The notes under the pieces are model-generated. The model saw only the letters and a program-made list of their open reading frames with translations, ran no database searches and was not told the DNA's origin. DNA of 42,615 bases, from positions 1-42,615 of the forward strand of contig JBCNVN010000008.1 of assembly GCA_039630055.1 (NCBI GenBank). The letters are read 5' to 3'. The stretch comes from Candidatus Caldarchaeales archaeon. Lineage in GTDB: Archaea; Thermoproteota; Nitrososphaeria_A; Caldarchaeales; Wolframiiraptoraceae. The position numbers were made by a program, and so were the translations under genes. This document shows, one piece after another, positions 1 through 33,725 of this stretch; position 1 is the stretch's first letter; every line of letters starts with the position of its first letter.

Positions 1-237
1 TGGATCTTTTCAAATTATTTATTATTCTCGCTCTGGAACGATACCCCAGTATGGCTTTCAGAGGTTGATAAATTGATGTCAGATCTACTAGTGCATAGAC
101 CTCTTGATATAATCTTCTTTCTAACAGTTCCCCCAATAATCTCTGCCAGCATATCTGCCATGATTACGATGATCTCTAAAGAAGTCTCTAAGGAAGATAC
201 TGAGATAAAAGAAGATGAACAGTACCAGTTATGGTAA
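1..237 (+). CDS. 3' end of a probable membrane protein (partial, runs off left edge)
   Basis: Frame 1 is open from base 1 to TAA at 235-237: WIFSNYLLFSLW...DIIFFLTVPPIISASISAMITMISKEVSKEDTEIKEDEQYQLW*. A hydrophobic segment is followed by an acidic tail. Not in the ORF track. Confidence 0.65.
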   Translation, partial: WIFSNYLLFSLWNDTPVWLSEVDKLMSDLLVHRPLDIIFFLTVPPIISASISAMITMISKEVSKEDTEIKEDEQYQLW

Positions 238-240
238 GGT

Positions 241-258
241 CAGAAAAAGAAAAAATAG
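241..258 (-). terminator. Oligo-T tract, likely archaeal terminator of the Lys-rich microprotein gene
   Basis: Minus strand reads CTATTTTTTCTTTTTCTG about 12 nt after the TAA at 271. Confidence 0.5.
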
Positions 259-270
259 AGAGACGGTTTG

Positions 271-426
271 TTATGCAGCCGGTGCTCCAGGTATTTCTTC
301 AGGTGCAGGTTTTGCAGGCGCTTTCTTAGCCTTCTTCTTCGGAGCTTTCTTCTTAGCTACCTTCTTCTTAGCTCCCTTCTTCGCCGTCTTCTTTTTACTC
401 GTCTTCTTTGCTTTCTTAGGATTCAT
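271..426 (-). CDS. Lys/Ala/Pro-rich histone H1-tail-like basic microprotein (51 aa; 57 aa if ATG at 444 is used)
   Basis: Manual translation MNPKKAKKTSKKKTAKKGAKKKVAKKKAPKKKAKKAPAKPAPEEIPGAPAA* (21 K, 12 A). GGAG SD-like motif upstream of ATG426, TTTTTATA box near 468-475 and downstream T tract. The + strand ORFs 215..472 and 268..486 are its antisense shadows. Confidence 0.8.
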   Translation of the reverse strand: MNPKKAKKTSKKKTAKKGAKKKVAKKKAPKKKAKKAPAKPAPEEIPGAPAA

Positions 427-558
427 TCTCTTACTACACTCCATCAATTCTTATATTATTTTAGTTGTATAAAAATTTTCGGGTAAATTGATGGATGAAG
501 TTTGGGTAAGATGATCGCAAATGATAATAATGGGTAATGCATAGTTTTTGTGATGTAA

Positions 559-891
559 ATGGTAGCGGAAGTAGATATCTCAGAATTTAGGCGTCTTGAT
601 CTAAGAATTGGACGGGTTATTAGCGCCGAGAAGGTGAGGGGAACGGATCGTCTCATCAAGATGCTGGTAGACTTCGGGGATGTGAAGAAACAGGCTATAG
701 CAGGTCTTGGCCATATTTATGGTCCAGAACACTTCATCGGCAAACTATATGCATTCGTCTTCAATCTTAAACCTAGAAAGATTAGAGGAGAAACATCCGA
801 ATGTATGATCTTAGCAGCAACCGCAAGCGAGGAAGATATCGCTCCCTTGATACCTGAGAAGTCTATTCGAGTAGGCGCCCCTATAACGTGA
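559..891 (+). CDS. Stand-alone tRNA-binding OB-fold protein (MetRS C-terminal/Trbp111/CsaA family)
   Basis: Motifs DLRIGRVISAE, L..VDFG and NLKPRKIRG..SECMILAA are typical of tRNA_bind domains. Confidence 0.9.
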   Translation: MVAEVDISEFRRLDLRIGRVISAEKVRGTDRLIKMLVDFGDVKKQAIAGLGHIYGPEHFIGKLYAFVFNLKPRKIRGETSECMILAATASEEDIAPLIPEKSIRVGAPIT

Positions 892-960
892 CCAGTAGCT
901 GGTATGATCTGAGAAATAGAAAATAATTGGGATTAATAGGCTTATGATGGAGGGGAAAGG

Positions 961-2256
961 GTGCTTAAGAATTTCTTCATTAAGGATGCATTATCTTCCG
1001 CAGATGGATCAGAGTTAGAGTTGATAGGATGGGTGAGGTCTAAGAGGAGGCATGGTAAACTAGTCTTCTTAGACCTGAGAGATTCTACGGGCATGATTCA
1101 GGTAGCGGTAAAACGTGATACGGCGAATCTAGAAAGCTTTGAAAAGGCATTAGAGATAGGTTTAGAATCGGCTGTGATGGTCAGAGGTATAATTAAGAGA
1201 GACCCAAGAGCTCCAGGAGGGGTGGAACTCCATTGTAATAACTTGAGTGTTATCAGTCCTAGTCTAGAAGATTTTCCAATAAGGAAGGGGGTTGGATTAA
1301 GATATCTTCTAGATAATAGACATCTCCACCTGAGAAGTATGAGGGTTGCCTCCATAATGAAGGTGAGGGCGATGCTTATGGATATCGCCCGTAGATGGCT
1401 GAGGGAAAATGGATTTATAGAGATTAATTGTCCAACGTTTATAACAGCGGCTGTTGAAGGTGGAGCCACCTTATTTAAATTAGACTATTTTGGAAAGATT
1501 GCTTATCTCACTCAAAGCGTACAGTTTTATCAAGAGGCTGCTATATACGGGCTAGAAAAAGTATATAGTCTTCAACCTAGTTTTAGAGCAGAGCTAAGTA
1601 GAACTAGGAGGCATCTAACCGAGTTCTGGCACCTAGAAGTAGAGGTTGCACATGCCGAGTTGAATGATATTATGAAGATAATAGAAGAGCTTGTCCATGC
1701 TATGGTTTATGGTCTAAGTAAAGAATCAGGAGATGTTTTGAGAGTTCTTGGTAGAGAGATTAAACCCGAGATTGCTGAGCCACCTTATCCTCGATTGAAA
1801 TATGCTGAGGCTCTACAGATCCTACAGAGTAAGGGGGTCAAAATAGATTGGGGTGATGATTTCGGAGCAGATGAAGAAAGAATACTATCTAAAGAGTTTG
1901 AGAAGCCATTCTTCGTAACTAATTATCCGAGAGAGGCTAAAGCCTTCTATCACATGCCTGATCCAACCAATCCATCAGTTTGCTTGAATGCCGATCTTCT
2001 TGCACCAGGTGGTTATGGTGAGATAGTTGGAGGTGGACAGAGGATCCACGATTACAATCTACTGATAGAAAGAATCAAGGAGAATGGATTGAATGTTGAA
2101 GATTATAAATGGTATATTGATTTGAGGAGATATGGTAGTGTACCACACAGTGGTTTTGGGCTTGGTATTGAGAGGATGTTGTGGTGGCTTCTAGAACTAC
2201 CCCATATCCGTAGTGCATGCCTATTTCCGAGAACACCTACAAGGATATACCCATAA
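961..2256 (+). CDS. asnS: Asparagine--tRNA ligase
   Basis: N-terminal OB fold (GWV...FLDLRDSTG), YLTQS, FRAELSRTRRHLTEFWHLE (AsnRS-type motif 2), GYGEIVGGGQR and PHSGFGLGIER motif 3. Confidence 0.9.
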   Translation: MLKNFFIKDALSSADGSELELIGWVRSKRRHGKLVFLDLRDSTGMIQVAVKRDTANLESFEKALEIGLESAVMVRGIIKRDPRAPGGVELHCNNLSVISPSLEDFPIRKGVGLRYLLDNRHLHLRSMRVASIMKVRAMLMDIARRWLRENGFIEINCPTFITAAVEGGATLFKLDYFGKIAYLTQSVQFYQEAAIYGLEKVYSLQPSFRAELSRTRRHLTEFWHLEVEVAHAELNDIMKIIEELVHAMVYGLSKESGDVLRVLGREIKPEIAEPPYPRLKYAEALQILQSKGVKIDWGDDFGADEERILSKEFEKPFFVTNYPREAKAFYHMPDPTNPSVCLNADLLAPGGYGEIVGGGQRIHDYNLLIERIKENGLNVEDYKWYIDLRRYGSVPHSGFGLGIERMLWWLLELPHIRSACLFPRTPTRIYP

Positions 2257-28308: not shown

Positions 28309-29379
28309 ATGAGGATTGTAAATAACGAAGAGAAGATGAAAGAGGCGGAGGCGATACTTTTAGATTGTGATGGTACTATTATCGATGCCTCCAAGTCTTA
28401 TGATTTGGCCATAAAGCTCGCCACGGTCATAGTCCTAGACAAGCTATTCAACATAGAGATCAAGCTTGGTCGAGAGATTGAGAAGACGATAGAATCACTT
28501 AGGATGACTGGAGGATTCAATAACGATAGCGATACCACTTCAGCCATCATACAGGCCATTAGCATATTTCTACCCATAACAGTGGAATACAACATAGACA
28601 AATGGGAGAGGATCGAAGATATGAATGAGTATATCCATTCAGTTCAATGGGAGAGATCATATCCAGGGTTTGTCTCTACCGCCTTGGAATGGCTATCTAC
28701 CACAGTAGAGCTAGATAAAAATTATTTAGATTTAGAAATGATTGAGAGATTAATCGATGATAAAGCCTCAAGACTTTACACATCGAAGAGACTCTTAAAA
28801 CTGAGATCTTTCTTAAAATATCCAGGAGCCTTCGGCGAAAGCTTTCTCACAACTCTATTTGATGAAATATTTCTTGGAAGAGATGGGGTTAGAGAGAAGT
28901 ATGGACAAGAGCCACGATACGTAATCTACAGTGGAACCTTGAGCAATGAAAAGATCTTGATAAGTGAAGAATCTATAAGAAGGTTGACGAGTCTTTTCCC
29001 AAAGGGTATAGCATTGATTACCGGTCGAGGTAGATGGGAGACCGAGAAAACCCTTAAACCTATTCTAGATTACATAAATATGGAGGCATCTGTTTTTACC
29101 GCTGATAGAGGTTCAGATTTCGAGAAGCCAAGCCCTAAAGCAGTATTAGAAGTAGCAAGAATACTTCAATCTACTAAATTACTGTATGTTGGAAACTCTA
29201 TGGAAGATCTCCTAATGGCTTCATCAGCTTCTAGAGAGGGATTAGATGTAGGATTTATAGGGGTGGTTAATGATAGGGATAGAGCTAGAGAATTTGAGAT
29301 CCGTGGTGCAGATGCGATCATAGATGATATCAACGAGCTACCATTATTGATCCAAGAGGTCAAATTTGAAAGATGCTAA
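28309..29379 (+). CDS. HAD-superfamily hydrolase
   Basis: DCDGT motif I, ITGR motif II, KPSP and YVGNSMED. Confidence 0.8.
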   Translation: MRIVNNEEKMKEAEAILLDCDGTIIDASKSYDLAIKLATVIVLDKLFNIEIKLGREIEKTIESLRMTGGFNNDSDTTSAIIQAISIFLPITVEYNIDKWERIEDMNEYIHSVQWERSYPGFVSTALEWLSTTVELDKNYLDLEMIERLIDDKASRLYTSKRLLKLRSFLKYPGAFGESFLTTLFDEIFLGRDGVREKYGQEPRYVIYSGTLSNEKILISEESIRRLTSLFPKGIALITGRGRWETEKTLKPILDYINMEASVFTADRGSDFEKPSPKAVLEVARILQSTKLLYVGNSMEDLLMASSASREGLDVGFIGVVNDRDRAREFEIRGADAIIDDINELPLLIQEVKFERC

Positions 29380-31086: not shown

Positions 31087-32553
31087 TTATTCGGGGAGTC
31101 CTTGCTGAGAGATTCTTTTATAGTATTCTCTGCCAAAATCTGTCAGAGTATATCTTTTCCTAAACCTCTTATTTTTGATCTTATCGGAGATTAATGGTTG
31201 GATTAATCCTGCTGAAGCTAGTTCGGTTAAGTGCTCGTAGATCGATGGATACTTTATCTTTATACCGTATCTGGTGGCAAGCTCTTTCTGGATCCCATAT
31301 CCATGTAGAGGTTTTTCAGCCAGTAAACTCATTATCCTCCTCTTAGTTATCCCGATCATTTTATGCTGTCTAGTCATCTTACCCGTCTCAATCTCTATGA
31401 TGGACTGGATCGTTGAGGGATCCTTCATTCCAGAGCCTGTGACTATGTAGACTACAGTTTCATCTCTTTTAACGAGACCTAAGTTTAAAGCATCGATCAG
31501 GGTTGCAAGGGATACCGCTGCTGCAGGCTCAGCAAGTATCCCCTCACTCTTAGCAAGAACTTTTATCGCATCTAGTACCTGCTCTTCATTTACCGCCAAT
31601 ATTTCTCCATCAGATTCTCTTACAGCCTTTAATGCCATATGCCCCCAGACAGGGTTCGGCTCAGCGATGTCTGGAAAAACTACCCTAAAATTGGAGGAGG
31701 GCTCAAAAGTTTCTCTACCTTCTCTATAGGCTTCAGCTATAGGTGCACATGAAGAAACTTGGCCGCCGAGTATACTTGGAGGCCGATCTCGCAGTAGACC
31801 TATCTCTTCAACTTCCTTGATTGCTTTCCAAGATGCTGTAACGTGGGACCCGCTTCCAATAGGTATCAAGATCCAGTCGGGTGGATTCCAGTTGAGCTCT
31901 TCTAAGACTTCTAATGTACAGGTTTTGAAACCTTCTACTAGTAATGGGTTCGAAGATGTAATTATGTAGTTTTCATGTGGCCATGAGGTTGAGAAAGTTA
32001 GAATAGATGTAGGATCGTTGGTAAGGAAGACTTCTGCATTATATGCTAGTGCTTGTAATAATTTAACTTGTTCAACCCCTGGTTTTAGGTAGACTGAGCA
32101 TGGAATACCGGCTTTCGCTGAGTAGGCCGATATGGATACTGATAGATTTCCAGGAGCTATACAGATTATTCTCGAGATACCTAACTCAACATCTCTGCTA
32201 ATCTCTACCGTTGCACCTCTATCCGTAAAGGCTCCCGTAGGATTGGTTGATTCATTCTTAATGTAGAGTTTCCTTAAACCGATCATCTTTCCAAGCCCAT
32301 AAGAATGATGTAGATATGATCCACCCTCACCCATACTAATCGGATTGATCTTTATGGGTGGGAGAAGCTCGAGATATCTCCAGACACCCTTCGGTCTAGA
32401 GGTAAACTTCTCAGTTAGGTTAGAGTTATCTAGTAGATTAAGATCGTACTCGAGTAGGAATGGTGAGCCACATTTGCAGATGTTTTTAGTTAGGAGACTG
32501 TAGACCTCTTCTCTGCCACATCCTGAACACCTATATATGAGGTTCAATTTCAC
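31087..32553 (-). CDS. Threonine synthase-like fold-type II protein lacking the PLP lysine, fused to a C-terminal PadR-like winged HTH
   Basis: N-terminal CxxC...CxC, VWRY, MGEG, NPTGAFTDRG (canonical FKDRG), PIGSG, EGILAEPAAA and VTGSGMK, followed by LLAEKPLHGYGI...SIYEHLTELASAGLI...RKRYTLTDFG. Confidence 0.85.
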   Translation of the reverse strand: MKLNLIYRCSGCGREEVYSLLTKNICKCGSPFLLEYDLNLLDNSNLTEKFTSRPKGVWRYLELLPPIKINPISMGEGGSYLHHSYGLGKMIGLRKLYIKNESTNPTGAFTDRGATVEISRDVELGISRIICIAPGNLSVSISAYSAKAGIPCSVYLKPGVEQVKLLQALAYNAEVFLTNDPTSILTFSTSWPHENYIITSSNPLLVEGFKTCTLEVLEELNWNPPDWILIPIGSGSHVTASWKAIKEVEEIGLLRDRPPSILGGQVSSCAPIAEAYREGRETFEPSSNFRVVFPDIAEPNPVWGHMALKAVRESDGEILAVNEEQVLDAIKVLAKSEGILAEPAAAVSLATLIDALNLGLVKRDETVVYIVTGSGMKDPSTIQSIIEIETGKMTRQHKMIGITKRRIMSLLAEKPLHGYGIQKELATRYGIKIKYPSIYEHLTELASAGLIQPLISDKIKNKRFRKRYTLTDFGREYYKRISQQGLPE

Positions 32554-32608
32554 CTATATGTAGGGAATAGATTATATTATAGATTACCAGGATGTATTAA
32601 GGGTTGTC

Positions 32609-33322
32609 TTGAAGGTTAATTCTATAGGGATTAAGACGATAAGAGTAGCATTATCTACGGCTATCGTAGCGATAGCTACCAGTATCTTTACAGTATATGT
32701 TCCAGCTACTAGAGGATACTTCAATCTAGGAGAGACGATGATCTACTTTACAGCTCTATACTTTGGACCATTTATAGGAGCTTTTGCAGGAGGGATTGGA
32801 TCAGCATTGGCCGATATCCTTCTAGGTTATACGATCTATGCTCCAGCCACTCTAGTTATAAAAGCGGCTGAAGGTTGGACGGCTGGATACTTAGCCAAAA
32901 AGATATTGGGGAAAGAGAGGAATATCTTCAACTTTATATTATCTTTGATAGTGTCAACAGGCTACCTCTTCATAATACTGATTATAGGGTTGTATATCTT
33001 CTCTGGAGAGGTTGAGTTATCCCTCCAGATGCTGCCTTCACTTAGTGGGTTTATTCAACCTTATATCTGGTTTCCATTAGCGGTATTAGCTACTGCTACT
33101 CCAATATATCTAACTGTAAAATCTAAGAAGTCTGAAGGTCTTCTAGTACTCGTACTACTCCTATCTGGATTAGTAATGGTTTCAGGATACTTTATCTATC
33201 AACAGTTTATCTTGGGATACTATGCTGTAGCAGAAGTACCGGTAAACCTCGGCCAAGTAGTTTTAGGAGCTGCTGTAGCCATCCCTCTATATAGAGCTGT
33301 AAAAAGATTATCATCTAGATGA
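32609..33322 (+). CDS. ECF transporter substrate-specific (S) component
   Basis: VPATRGYFNLGE...FGPFIGAFAGGIGSALADILLGY..YAPATLVIK..EG, multiple TM helices and NLGQ. Confidence 0.85.
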   Translation: MKVNSIGIKTIRVALSTAIVAIATSIFTVYVPATRGYFNLGETMIYFTALYFGPFIGAFAGGIGSALADILLGYTIYAPATLVIKAAEGWTAGYLAKKILGKERNIFNFILSLIVSTGYLFIILIIGLYIFSGEVELSLQMLPSLSGFIQPYIWFPLAVLATATPIYLTVKSKKSEGLLVLVLLLSGLVMVSGYFIYQQFILGYYAVAEVPVNLGQVVLGAAVAIPLYRAVKRLSSR

Positions 33323-33725
33323 TGCCGATCGCGACTATCGATGGATACTTTGAGAGAATCTTCAAGATGATAGGCTTATAAGTGTAATAACGTTCTCCAT
33401 CATAAGGTATAAATCTTAATCCAGTCAATTTCTTCACTACTCCAGCCTCTACCTCACCACCATCTATAAAATATATGCTCTCTCCACTCTCGATACTTCT
33501 CCTAAATACTAGTGGTAGCCTTATCTTCTCCTTAAGCTCTTCTGGAAGAATGCTCTCTAAAAGCTCTAGCTCCCGTTTATCAAAGTAGTGTACACCTTTT
33601 ATGGTCTCAACAGATGGGACGTCCATATTCAAGAGAGTCTTTAATGGCAATCTGACTTTTGGAATATCCTTGTTTAGCTCTCTCAGCTGATATCTAAGCC
33701 ATTCATCTGAACTCTCTACAGACAA
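33315..33725 (-). CDS. DUF61/UPF0216-like protein
   Basis: LRELNKDIP..R..L..LL, HYFDKRELELL and RLPLVF resemble DUF61. Confidence 0.65.
   Translation of the reverse strand: MSVESSDEWLRYQLRELNKDIPKVRLPLKTLLNMDVPSVETIKGVHYFDKRELELLESILPEELKEKIRLPLVFRRSIESGESIYFIDGGEVEAGVVKKLTGLRFIPYDGERYYTYKPIILKILSKYPSIVAIGII

Follow-up and report, generated by a model that had tools for sequence, protein, structure and literature searches.

In the 42,615-nucleotide stretch of archaeal DNA analyzed here (contig JBCNVN010000008.1 of GenBank assembly GCA_039630055.1, from a Candidatus Caldarchaeales archaeon; hereafter the window), an open reading frame (ORF) on the minus strand at 31087..32553 very likely encodes a non-catalytic, autoregulated DNA-binding regulator, judging from its sequence and those of its relatives. 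The protein joins a domain of the threonine synthase (ThrC) fold, in which threonine stands at the position of the Schiff-base lysine, to a C-terminal PadR-type winged helix-turn-helix (wHTH) domain. We also consider it probable, with less confidence, that this lysine-less protein is a one-component regulator that senses a vitamin B6 vitamer and controls its own gene together with genes of B6 uptake and synthesis. An earlier note on this DNA, written from the sequence alone, had proposed a one-component regulator with a dead ThrC fold as its sensor for a B6 vitamer or a phospho-amino acid. Our analysis supports this proposal, and those parts of it that computation can test hold.

The ThrC-like domain and its lysine position

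The ORF stands alone, with no overlapping ORF of at least 60 amino acids. Counted from the GTG at 32553 it encodes 488 amino acids, and this numbering is used throughout. The gene probably starts at the TTG at 32547, which gives 486 amino acids, because a database protein with 100% identity to the window protein (P0001) has this length and because the starts of orthologues come after a conserved palindrome. In the window this palindrome occupies 32553-32564 and is overlapped by the GTG. The gene has the following features.

31087..32553, minus strand: ThrC-like/PadR fusion ORF, 488 amino acids from GTG or 486 from TTG (ORF calling and translation)
32470..32529, minus strand: Cys4 zinc-ribbon-like motif, C9-x2-C12...C26-x-C28 (translation and family consensus)
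31435..32340, minus strand: PALP domain of the ThrC type, residues 72-373, taken as the ligand-sensing and dimerising domain (Pfam, PDB, AlphaFold2, Foldseek and dimer model)
32224..32226, minus strand: codon ACG for Thr110, at the Schiff-base lysine position (alignment to solved ThrC)
31360..31422, minus strand: flexible (low-confidence) linker, residues 378-398 (predicted local distance difference test, pLDDT, below 50)
31117..31335, minus strand: PadR-type wHTH domain, residues 407-479 (Pfam PF03551, PDB matches and model)

Both domains claimed in the earlier note were recognized by Pfam. PALP (PF00291) matches residues 72-373 with an E value of 3.2e-53, and PadR (PF03551) matches residues 407-479 with an E value of 4.8e-13 (49.3 bits against a cut-off of 27). 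The motifs that the note had pointed out are all present as written. NPTGAFTDRG spans residues 104-113, with the Thr110 codon ACG at 32226-32224 on the minus strand, IAPGN spans residues 132-136, and the C-terminal part reads LLAEKPLHGYGI...SIYEHL...GLI...RKRYTLTDFG. In HMMER alignments to the ThrC chains 2zsj, 2d1f and 1uim, Thr110 pairs with the lysine of NPTGSFKDRG, IAPGN stands opposite ASTGN, GSGSH stands opposite GNAGN, and Leu205 pairs with the arginine of the ThrC NPxRxEG motif. Among PDB sequences, ThrC 2zsj matches the PALP domain best (E 3e-52), and identity to the solved ThrC chains is 31-36%. The C-terminal domain matches the PadR-family chains 5dym_A, 8jxk_A and 3elk_A. The family consensus of the N-terminus is CxxC...CxxCG, in which C28 hardly varies. 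This Cys-rich N-terminus is shared with unfused archaeal ThrC homologues, whose alignments begin at query residue 5-9.

Structure prediction, which the earlier note had suggested, returned a ThrC fold and a winged helix. The AlphaFold2 model, built from a family alignment of 43 sequences, has a mean pLDDT of 88.3 and contains two confident domains connected by the low-confidence linker. The top Foldseek matches of the model are ThrC structures (2c2b_A, E 6.6e-30; 2zsj, E 5.9e-29). The modelled C-terminal part consists of helices at 402-413, 418-429 and 435-447, strands at 451-455 and 466-470, and a helix at 472-483, and the predicted secondary structure of residues ~402-483 fits a winged helix. 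Residues Y419, H441, L442 and Y468 of the wHTH are invariant in the family alignment. They sit in the presumed recognition region and would fit an operator conserved across phyla.

To place Thr110 in its family, we collected homologues of the window protein. A word-indexed search gave 270 proteins at E ≤0.001, and most of the best 120 listed carry both PF00291 and PF03551; further proteins came from an exhaustive search of cluster representatives with HMMER. In the pooled set of 265 proteins, the wHTH was detected with a hidden Markov model (HMM) made from the family alignment, and the lysine column was read from an hmmalign alignment. The earlier note had asked for such a tabulation and had held that lysine in the orthologues would speak against its reading. 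The outcome was the opposite, as lysine loss tracks the wHTH almost perfectly. The 161 wHTH-bearing homologues comprise 158 with another residue at the Schiff-base position, two with lysine and one with a gap. The residues are isoleucine (49), leucine (47), valine (24), threonine (17), methionine (12), arginine (5), lysine (2), and asparagine, phenylalanine, alanine and serine (one each). Lysine is kept in 101 of the 104 homologues that lack the wHTH; the exceptions are P0156, P0168 and P0205, two of which are short (362 and 306 amino acids) and probably truncated. The window's own motif, FTDRG, is found in all 13 nearest relatives (P0001-P0013, 48-100% identity).

We built a PALP-domain tree with FastTree from 263 sequences and 341 columns and read it by bipartitions, since midpoint rooting gave an uninformative split. 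The fusions form one clade of 161 leaves with a support of 0.991. In its main part, with 153 members, the lysine position is occupied exclusively by V, I, L, M, T, N or F. The remaining eight form a sister clade (support 1.0) with R in five, K in two and S in one. One wHTH protein, P0165 (Ala), was placed outside the fusion clade. If the root lies among the unfused enzymes, the wHTH would have been gained once and the lysine lost later.

We note two observations on the relatives. The sister-clade members are P0164, P0181, P0185, P0225 and P0264 (Arg), P0191 and P0194 (Lys) and P0231 (Ser), with the motif PT(N/G/S/Q)SF(R/K)DR(A/S/V) and mostly a basic residue at the lysine position. Another group of ThrC homologues, which retain the lysine, is ~610-627 amino acids long (P0178, P0184, P0190, P0198, P0221, P0229, P0230, P0237 and P0250). 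All three members scanned carry PF08502, the LeuA allosteric/dimerisation domain, as a C-terminal extension (P0184, 1.6e-27; P0190, 7.1e-22; P0230, 9.4e-26), and these three would be threonine synthases fused to an amino-acid-binding regulatory domain.

The rest of the cofactor framework is kept. Among the 161 fusions, the residues of the window protein are conserved as follows: N104 in 157, D111 in 160, R112 in 160, G135 in 157, N136 in 149, G233 in 157, G235 in 161, E342 in 158, T372 in 159, G373 in 156, G375 in 158 and K377 in 157. The cofactor-framing positions are conserved at least as well in the fusions as in the 104 unfused proteins. The arginine of the ThrC NPxRxEG motif binds the phosphate of the substrate, O-phosphohomoserine, and its position is hydrophobic in the fusions (leucine in 64, phenylalanine in 56 and isoleucine in 17). 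Among enzymes of fold type II, the Schiff-base lysine lies near the N-terminus, a more C-terminal loop binds the phosphate of pyridoxal 5'-phosphate (PLP), and a Ser, Thr or Cys contacts the pyridine nitrogen (PMC6411801). The putative role of each conserved pocket residue in the window protein is assigned by alignment to ThrC. A framework under selection, combined with a hydrophobic residue or threonine in place of lysine, agrees with a pocket in which a PLP-like ligand is still held without a covalent bond.

The window protein also scores below the equivalog cut-offs of ThrC families (TIGR00260, 156.9 against 167.1; NF006050, 255.6 against 303; NF004170, 257.2 against 421). Two further genes of the host genome, C3:17859-18830 and C12:53680-54657, score above the TIGR00260 cut-off as ThrC, and both keep FKDR and STGN intact. 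With two intact ThrC genes in the same genome and scores below cut-off, the fusion protein is not needed as an enzyme. By the sequence criteria of score, lysine and arginine, it is not a threonine synthase.

Proteins of this family are nevertheless named 'threonine synthase' or 'pyridoxal-phosphate dependent enzyme' in databases, as the earlier note had expected of such fusions. NF004170 (NCBIfam; PRK05638, 'threonine synthase', equivalog) is a profile of 442 positions that covers the wHTH as well as the ThrC part; it aligns with family members over positions 2-441 and with the window protein over positions 3-420. The best relatives tested against it, P0264 (Arg) with 384 bits and P0191 (Lys) with 357, are both under the 421-bit cut-off; they belong to the sister clade, whose members come closest to this profile. 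No protein of the control genomes (model organisms) scores above the NF004170 cut-off, and a cluster look-up for cultured carriers of the fusion returned only names of metagenome-assembled genomes. The name of NF004170 implies an enzyme, and the lysine-less members are unlikely to be such enzymes.

The protein is predicted to form a homodimer. Two copies of residues 41-488 were modelled with PLP in three runs, and the homodimer model score was 0.86, compared with 0.00 for the best control. In the calibration, 20 of 30 proteins with structures solved as pairs attained this mark, against one of 23 solved as single chains. The contact agreement across the three runs was at least 64%, and the partner pLDDT was at least 84. 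The confident interface is formed by the ThrC-fold domain (residues 55-386). The predicted dimer is compatible with a palindromic operator.

Divergent gene, probable shared promoter and vitamin B6 context

The fusion gene is divergent from a gene for an S-component of an energy-coupling factor (ECF) transporter, and the candidate regulatory elements lie between the two starts.

32553..32564, no strand assigned: candidate operator CCTATATGTAGG, one mismatch from the palindrome CCTATATATAGG, 5 nt upstream of the TTG start (site conservation)
32571..32582, no strand assigned: AT-rich TATA-like box, ATTATATTATAG on the plus strand, six bases from the palindrome and between the divergent starts, a probable shared promoter core (aligned sites)
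32609..33322, plus strand: ECF-transporter S-component gene, 237 amino acids, the presumed regulated target (Pfam PF07155, 99.2 bits against 26.7)

The only sequence match of the S-component among solved structures is 4hzu_S (E 5.6e-11). 4HZU is the structure of Lactobacillus brevis HmpT/PdxU2, which was first named HmpT for hydroxymethylpyrimidine and has been shown holding pyridoxamine (PMC4860826). Four of the six HmpT pocket residues are identical in the window's S-component (E41, Y120, N140 and Q143), and two are replaced (H84 by K and Q87 by E). This match says little about the substrate, because the pocket residues are described as conserved among S-components (PMC4860826). The two proteins differ in length, 237 versus 166 amino acids, and in NCBIfam the window's S-component weakly matches an uncharacterised family as well as the S components for riboflavin and folate. 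Only three prokaryotic B6 transporters have been characterised, and two of them, PdxU and PdxU2/HmpT, are members of PF07155 (PMC9997740).

The association with such genes extends over the fusion family. From species-representative genomes and a 301-genome phylum scan we obtained 37 full-length fusion loci, or 36 distinct ones (L007 is the same as L100). A PF07155-like gene is present in 24 of the 36, and in 22 it is adjacent and divergent. In the two other cases it lies downstream on the same strand (L018) or ~3 kb away (L021). In two further loci, L105 and L008 (a Thermoplasmata record), pdxS and pdxT are divergent from the fusion gene (Pfam SOR_SNZ, the PdxS family, E 4.6e-97 and 1.7e-100; SNO, E 7.3e-31 and 2e-52, respectively). 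Neither PF07155 nor pdxST genes were found at any of 74 unfused-ThrC loci (657,316 bases). The records with fusion loci span Thorarchaeota, Bathyarchaeia, Nitrososphaerota, Nitrosopumilales, Nitrososphaerales and Thermoplasmata, and none of the bacterial records in the same list has a match that extends into the wHTH. One locus, L104 (G252), has a different neighbor: a gene for a membrane-anchored GNAT acetyltransferase (2-1395, minus strand) is divergent from the fusion with a perfect TATA-palindrome element, followed by an EamA-family transporter. This GNAT gene is a possible alternative target of the regulator.

A 12-bp palindrome, CCTATATATAGG, is common to the intergenic regions upstream of the fusion genes. 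We searched for sites between positions -200 and +40 relative to the fusion start. There the palindrome occurs with at most one mismatch in 23 of 37 loci (22 of the 36 distinct loci) and with at most two in 29 of 37. The same range at 72 unfused ThrC loci holds no site at either threshold. In all 852,394 bases of these loci there are 24 sites with at most one mismatch, 23 of which lie at the 5' end of a fusion gene. The consensus of 31 aligned sites, including that of the window, is a.aATATATAAG-N6-CCTAtATATAGG with constant spacing, and in most loci with a readable start the orthologue's start codon follows 1 to 5 nt past the palindrome. The element is kept at loci with a non-transporter neighbor (L104, L109, L114 and others), and a degenerate form is found at the pdxST loci. 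Autoregulation is thus a seemingly constant feature, as the element persists whatever the neighbor.

The arrangement also suggests how the two genes are transcribed. The distance from the TATA center to the fusion start codon is ~26 nt, and that to the transporter start is ~26 nt in the sister genus and ~33 nt in the window. In archaea, the transcription start lies ~26 nt beyond the center of the TATA box, and many mRNAs lack a leader. From these distances and this rule, we infer that one shared core promoter may fire in both directions. An operator between the TATA box and the gene start is the classical position of an archaeal repressor, and the candidate operator takes this position at the regulator's own gene. 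On the transporter side, unlike at the regulator's own start, the palindrome sits directly upstream of the transcription factor B recognition element and TATA box, so control over the transporter gene may be of either sign. For the archaeal regulator RbkR, sites ~5 nt upstream of TATA boxes have been read as suggesting activation (PMC5397151).

The regulon appears to be local, and the motif alone reveals no further B6 genes. The 1.54 Mb host genome contains eight sites with at most one mismatch, and, judging by the flanking sequence, only the window site has a correctly spaced TATA box. In five other carrier genomes, the composite TATA-palindrome is found only at the fusion promoters L120 and L122, with one doubtful candidate, L131. 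A second palindrome-like site in the window, CCTATATATGAG (32530-32541, two mismatches), at a distance of 23 bp from the main one, falls within the ORF at its 5' end; we judged it to be a chance occurrence because it is absent in the 72%-identical orthologue L086. The congeneric locus L090 (G082) has a perfect palindrome 78 nt upstream of its extrapolated start and an apparent second, partly captured copy at the start, and may have two operators.

Gene content suggests that the host lineage is probably auxotrophic for vitamin B6. Metagenome runs listed as containing the window's DNA are from hot springs and belong to a single study; one of them may be its source, and none of the runs listed is of RNA. 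The host assembly has 1.54 Mb in 80 contigs and is 91.9% complete. PdxS (PF01680) and PdxT (PF01174) were not found in it by searches that find them in 10 and 11 of 14 control genomes, respectively. The genome contains three EcfT/CbiQ-type genes and a single PF07155 gene, which is the neighbor of the fusion. It also holds kinases of the Phos_pyr_kin family, which could phosphorylate salvaged vitamers. Within the taxonomic family, a search for PdxS gave no match in 7 further genomes of the window's genus (g1) or in 7 of the sister genus (g2), and matches in 10 of 14 genomes of a third genus (g3). In the phylum scan, g1 and g2 genomes carry the fusion, and the five g3 genomes with a match have unfused ThrC only. 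This complementary pattern, which represents very few independent events and incomplete assemblies, fits a salvage module in B6 auxotrophs.

Two further genes nearby are of note. A DUF61 (PF01886) gene at 33315-33725 on the minus strand converges on the S-component gene with an 8-base overlap, and its synteny is limited to the genus. At a distance of 1.7 kb from the regulator is a gene for a HAD-family hydrolase of 356 amino acids (28309-29379, plus strand; PF00702, E 9.8e-07); the HAD enzymes include PLP phosphatases such as YbhA (PMC9997740). The genes between the hydrolase and the regulator, for a geranylgeranyl-reductase-like flavoprotein and an acylphosphatase, are likewise syntenic only within the genus.

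Proposed mechanism and alternative explanations

We propose the following mechanism. The protein would act as a homodimeric one-component regulator rather than as an enzyme. Its ThrC-fold domain, having lost the Schiff-base lysine and kept the cofactor framework, would have a phosphorylated B6 vitamer, most likely PLP, as its signal and bind it in a reversible, non-covalent way. A flexible linker would join this sensor to the PadR winged helix, which would recognize the palindrome between the shared TATA box and the regulator's start codon, and through this site the regulator would repress its own gene. The divergent S-component, of the PdxU/PdxU2 family, would serve B6 uptake in a host that shows no PLP synthase, and in other archaea the same regulator stands beside pdxS-pdxT. 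Our guess is that the vitamer-bound form shuts down the uptake and synthesis genes. The identity of the ligand, the binding to DNA, the lack of catalysis and the sign of regulation are what we infer from the comparisons and models above. A B6 vitamer is favored over a phospho-amino acid because of the PdxU-family and pdxST neighbors, the kept cofactor framework, and the hydrophobic residue at the position of the ThrC arginine.

We also lean, with somewhat less confidence than for the B6 model itself, toward a broader reading. The fusions would be an archaea-wide family of B6 sensors, in which a fold-type II pseudoenzyme dropped its lysine to report free PLP and was wired through PadR to a palindrome shared across phyla, as the missing archaeal counterpart of bacterial PdxR, built from wholly different components. 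This reading includes the bidirectional leaderless promoter, and it takes the Lys/Arg sister clade as marking the step between enzyme and sensor.

Several points weigh against a B6-sensing regulator. Fusion loci without a transporter or pdxST in the examined flanks, mostly of 1.5 kb, make up 10 of the 36. The sample is rich in kin, with five loci from the window's genus and seven from the sister genus, and the counts overstate independence. PF07155 is a heterogeneous family whose Pfam name is that of a riboflavin-transporter S component, and the annotation of the few known B6 transporters is hard to propagate (PMC9997740). At seven or eight of the 36 distinct loci the best operator site has at least three mismatches, and in the five other carrier genomes the 12-mer with at most one mismatch is no commoner than its reversed control. 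The absence of PdxS and PdxT rests on the incomplete, 80-contig host assembly (91.9%). ThrC dimers are solved structures, so the passing dimer model may reflect likeness to them. Finally, the aldehyde of free PLP could, without the lysine, react with an amino compound, and the signal might be the adduct.

This last point leads to the first alternative, in which the protein is a regulator whose signal is an amino or phospho-amino compound (threonine, O-phosphohomoserine or serine), sensed directly or as an aldimine with non-covalent PLP. GabR reportedly senses γ-aminobutyric acid as its aldimine with PLP. The descent of the sensor domain from threonine synthase agrees with such a signal, and a lysine-less pocket would leave the PLP aldehyde free for an amine. 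The ten loci just mentioned, whose neighbors are unrelated to B6 (GNAT with EamA, GH18, an amidohydrolase, a topoisomerase), agree with it as well. However, no threonine, homoserine or aspartate-family gene is a conserved neighbor; the recurrent ones are PF07155 (24/36) and pdxST (2/36). The residue that binds the substrate phosphate in ThrC is also mostly Leu, Phe or Ile in the 161 fusions (64, 56 and 17). We therefore regard an amino-compound signal as rather unlikely.

The regulator and the transporter could instead serve another micronutrient, such as riboflavin or the thiamine precursor hydroxymethylpyrimidine, with the pocket re-tooled for it. The Pfam name of PF07155, the original naming of 4hzu_S as HmpT (PMC4860826) and the weak riboflavin and folate matches in NCBIfam would agree with this. 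It is opposed by pdxS-pdxT, which are divergent from the fusion in two distant lineages with the same TATA-palindrome layout, and by the conservation of those residues that, in enzymes of fold type II, surround the ring and phosphate of PLP. HmpT, moreover, was shown with pyridoxamine (PMC4860826), and the host genome shows no PLP synthase. Another micronutrient is in our view improbable.

A continued role as an enzyme is still less probable. The protein would then be bifunctional like RbkR, or a lysine-independent ThrC variant with the wHTH as an add-on. Most of the active-site framework is kept, the sister-clade proteins P0191 and P0194 have lysine, and archaeal RbkR is an active enzyme fused to a wHTH (PMC5397151). 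On the other hand, all 153 main-clade members have a residue that cannot chemically substitute for lysine, and the window protein is below every ThrC equivalog cut-off in a genome with two intact ThrC genes. That the Thr codon is a sequencing error or a strain mutation in an ordinary threonine synthase, although AAG to ACG is a change of one base, has hardly any probability, because threonine is found in 13 of 13 nearest homologues down to 48% identity, 158 of the 161 fusions are without lysine, a second metagenome run contains 93% of the sampled words of the window, and the homologue sequences come from separate sources (NCBI, JGI, ENA and Logan).

Relation to known regulators and implications

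A lysine-less, B6-sensing regulator would resemble the bacterial PdxR/MocR regulators (GabR, TauR), which are also one-component proteins with a wHTH and a sensor of PLP-enzyme fold. The earlier note had drawn this parallel while expecting a different fold, and both parts agree with our results. In MocR proteins, a GntR-type wHTH at the N-terminus is combined with an aminotransferase-like domain of fold type I, and the PLP lysine is kept. The window protein, in contrast, has a C-terminal PadR domain, no GntR match, and a fold-type II ThrC domain without the lysine. The relation is convergent, not homologous. Bacterial PdxR regulons comprise pdxST, pdxK and pdxU (PMC5320631), and the fusion family adjoins the same types of genes, an association seen with PF07155 in 24/36 loci and pdxST in 2/36, versus 0/74 controls. 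The same source states that MocR factors are absent from Archaea (PMC5320631).

Compared with ThrC (TIGR00260, PRK08197; 2zsj, 2d1f, 1uim and 6cgq), the window protein has the same fold, and its Cys-rich N-terminus is shared with unfused archaeal homologues. It differs in lacking the Schiff-base lysine, in the replaced NPxRxEG arginine, in the altered GNAGN loop, in the added linker and wHTH, and in its separate clade. Classical PadR proteins are small, with ~110-180 amino acids. The PadR-type wHTH above the Pfam cut-off is in common with that family, and the palindromic candidate operator and the predicted dimer would fit it, but here the PadR domain follows an enzyme-fold domain of ~400 amino acids, which supplies the predicted dimer interface.

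Among archaeal vitamin regulators, ThiR, reportedly a ThiN-like domain fused to a DNA-binding domain, would be similar and is unrelated in sequence. RbkR is likewise an enzyme-type domain joined to a wHTH, and it controls synthesis and transporter genes via palindromes situated a few bases away from the TATA box (PMC5397151). The domains, however, belong to unrelated families. RbkR is an active riboflavin kinase, with a sensor taken from the pathway that it regulates, whereas the window protein would use a dead, cofactor-dependent enzyme to sense the cofactor that this enzyme once needed.

A literature search found no published description of a ThrC-fold/PadR fusion, with most subscription journals and supplementary tables outside the search, and this kind of regulator is apparently undescribed for Archaea. 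PLP in its free form is reactive and toxic, and the way in which cells perceive its level and keep it low is considered an open question; knowledge of B6 transporters and regulators is described as poor (PMC9997740). If our reading is true, a lysine-less ThrC-fold regulator fills a gap in Archaea, where MocR proteins, the only known PLP-sensing transcription factors, are stated to be absent. It would be a natural example of an enzyme turned into a sensor of its own cofactor, and it would correct a widespread 'threonine synthase' annotation. A genetic switch that responds to PLP might be derived from the 12-bp candidate operator and the single-protein design. For uncultured archaea, the finding would help to predict B6 auxotrophy and vitamin exchange.

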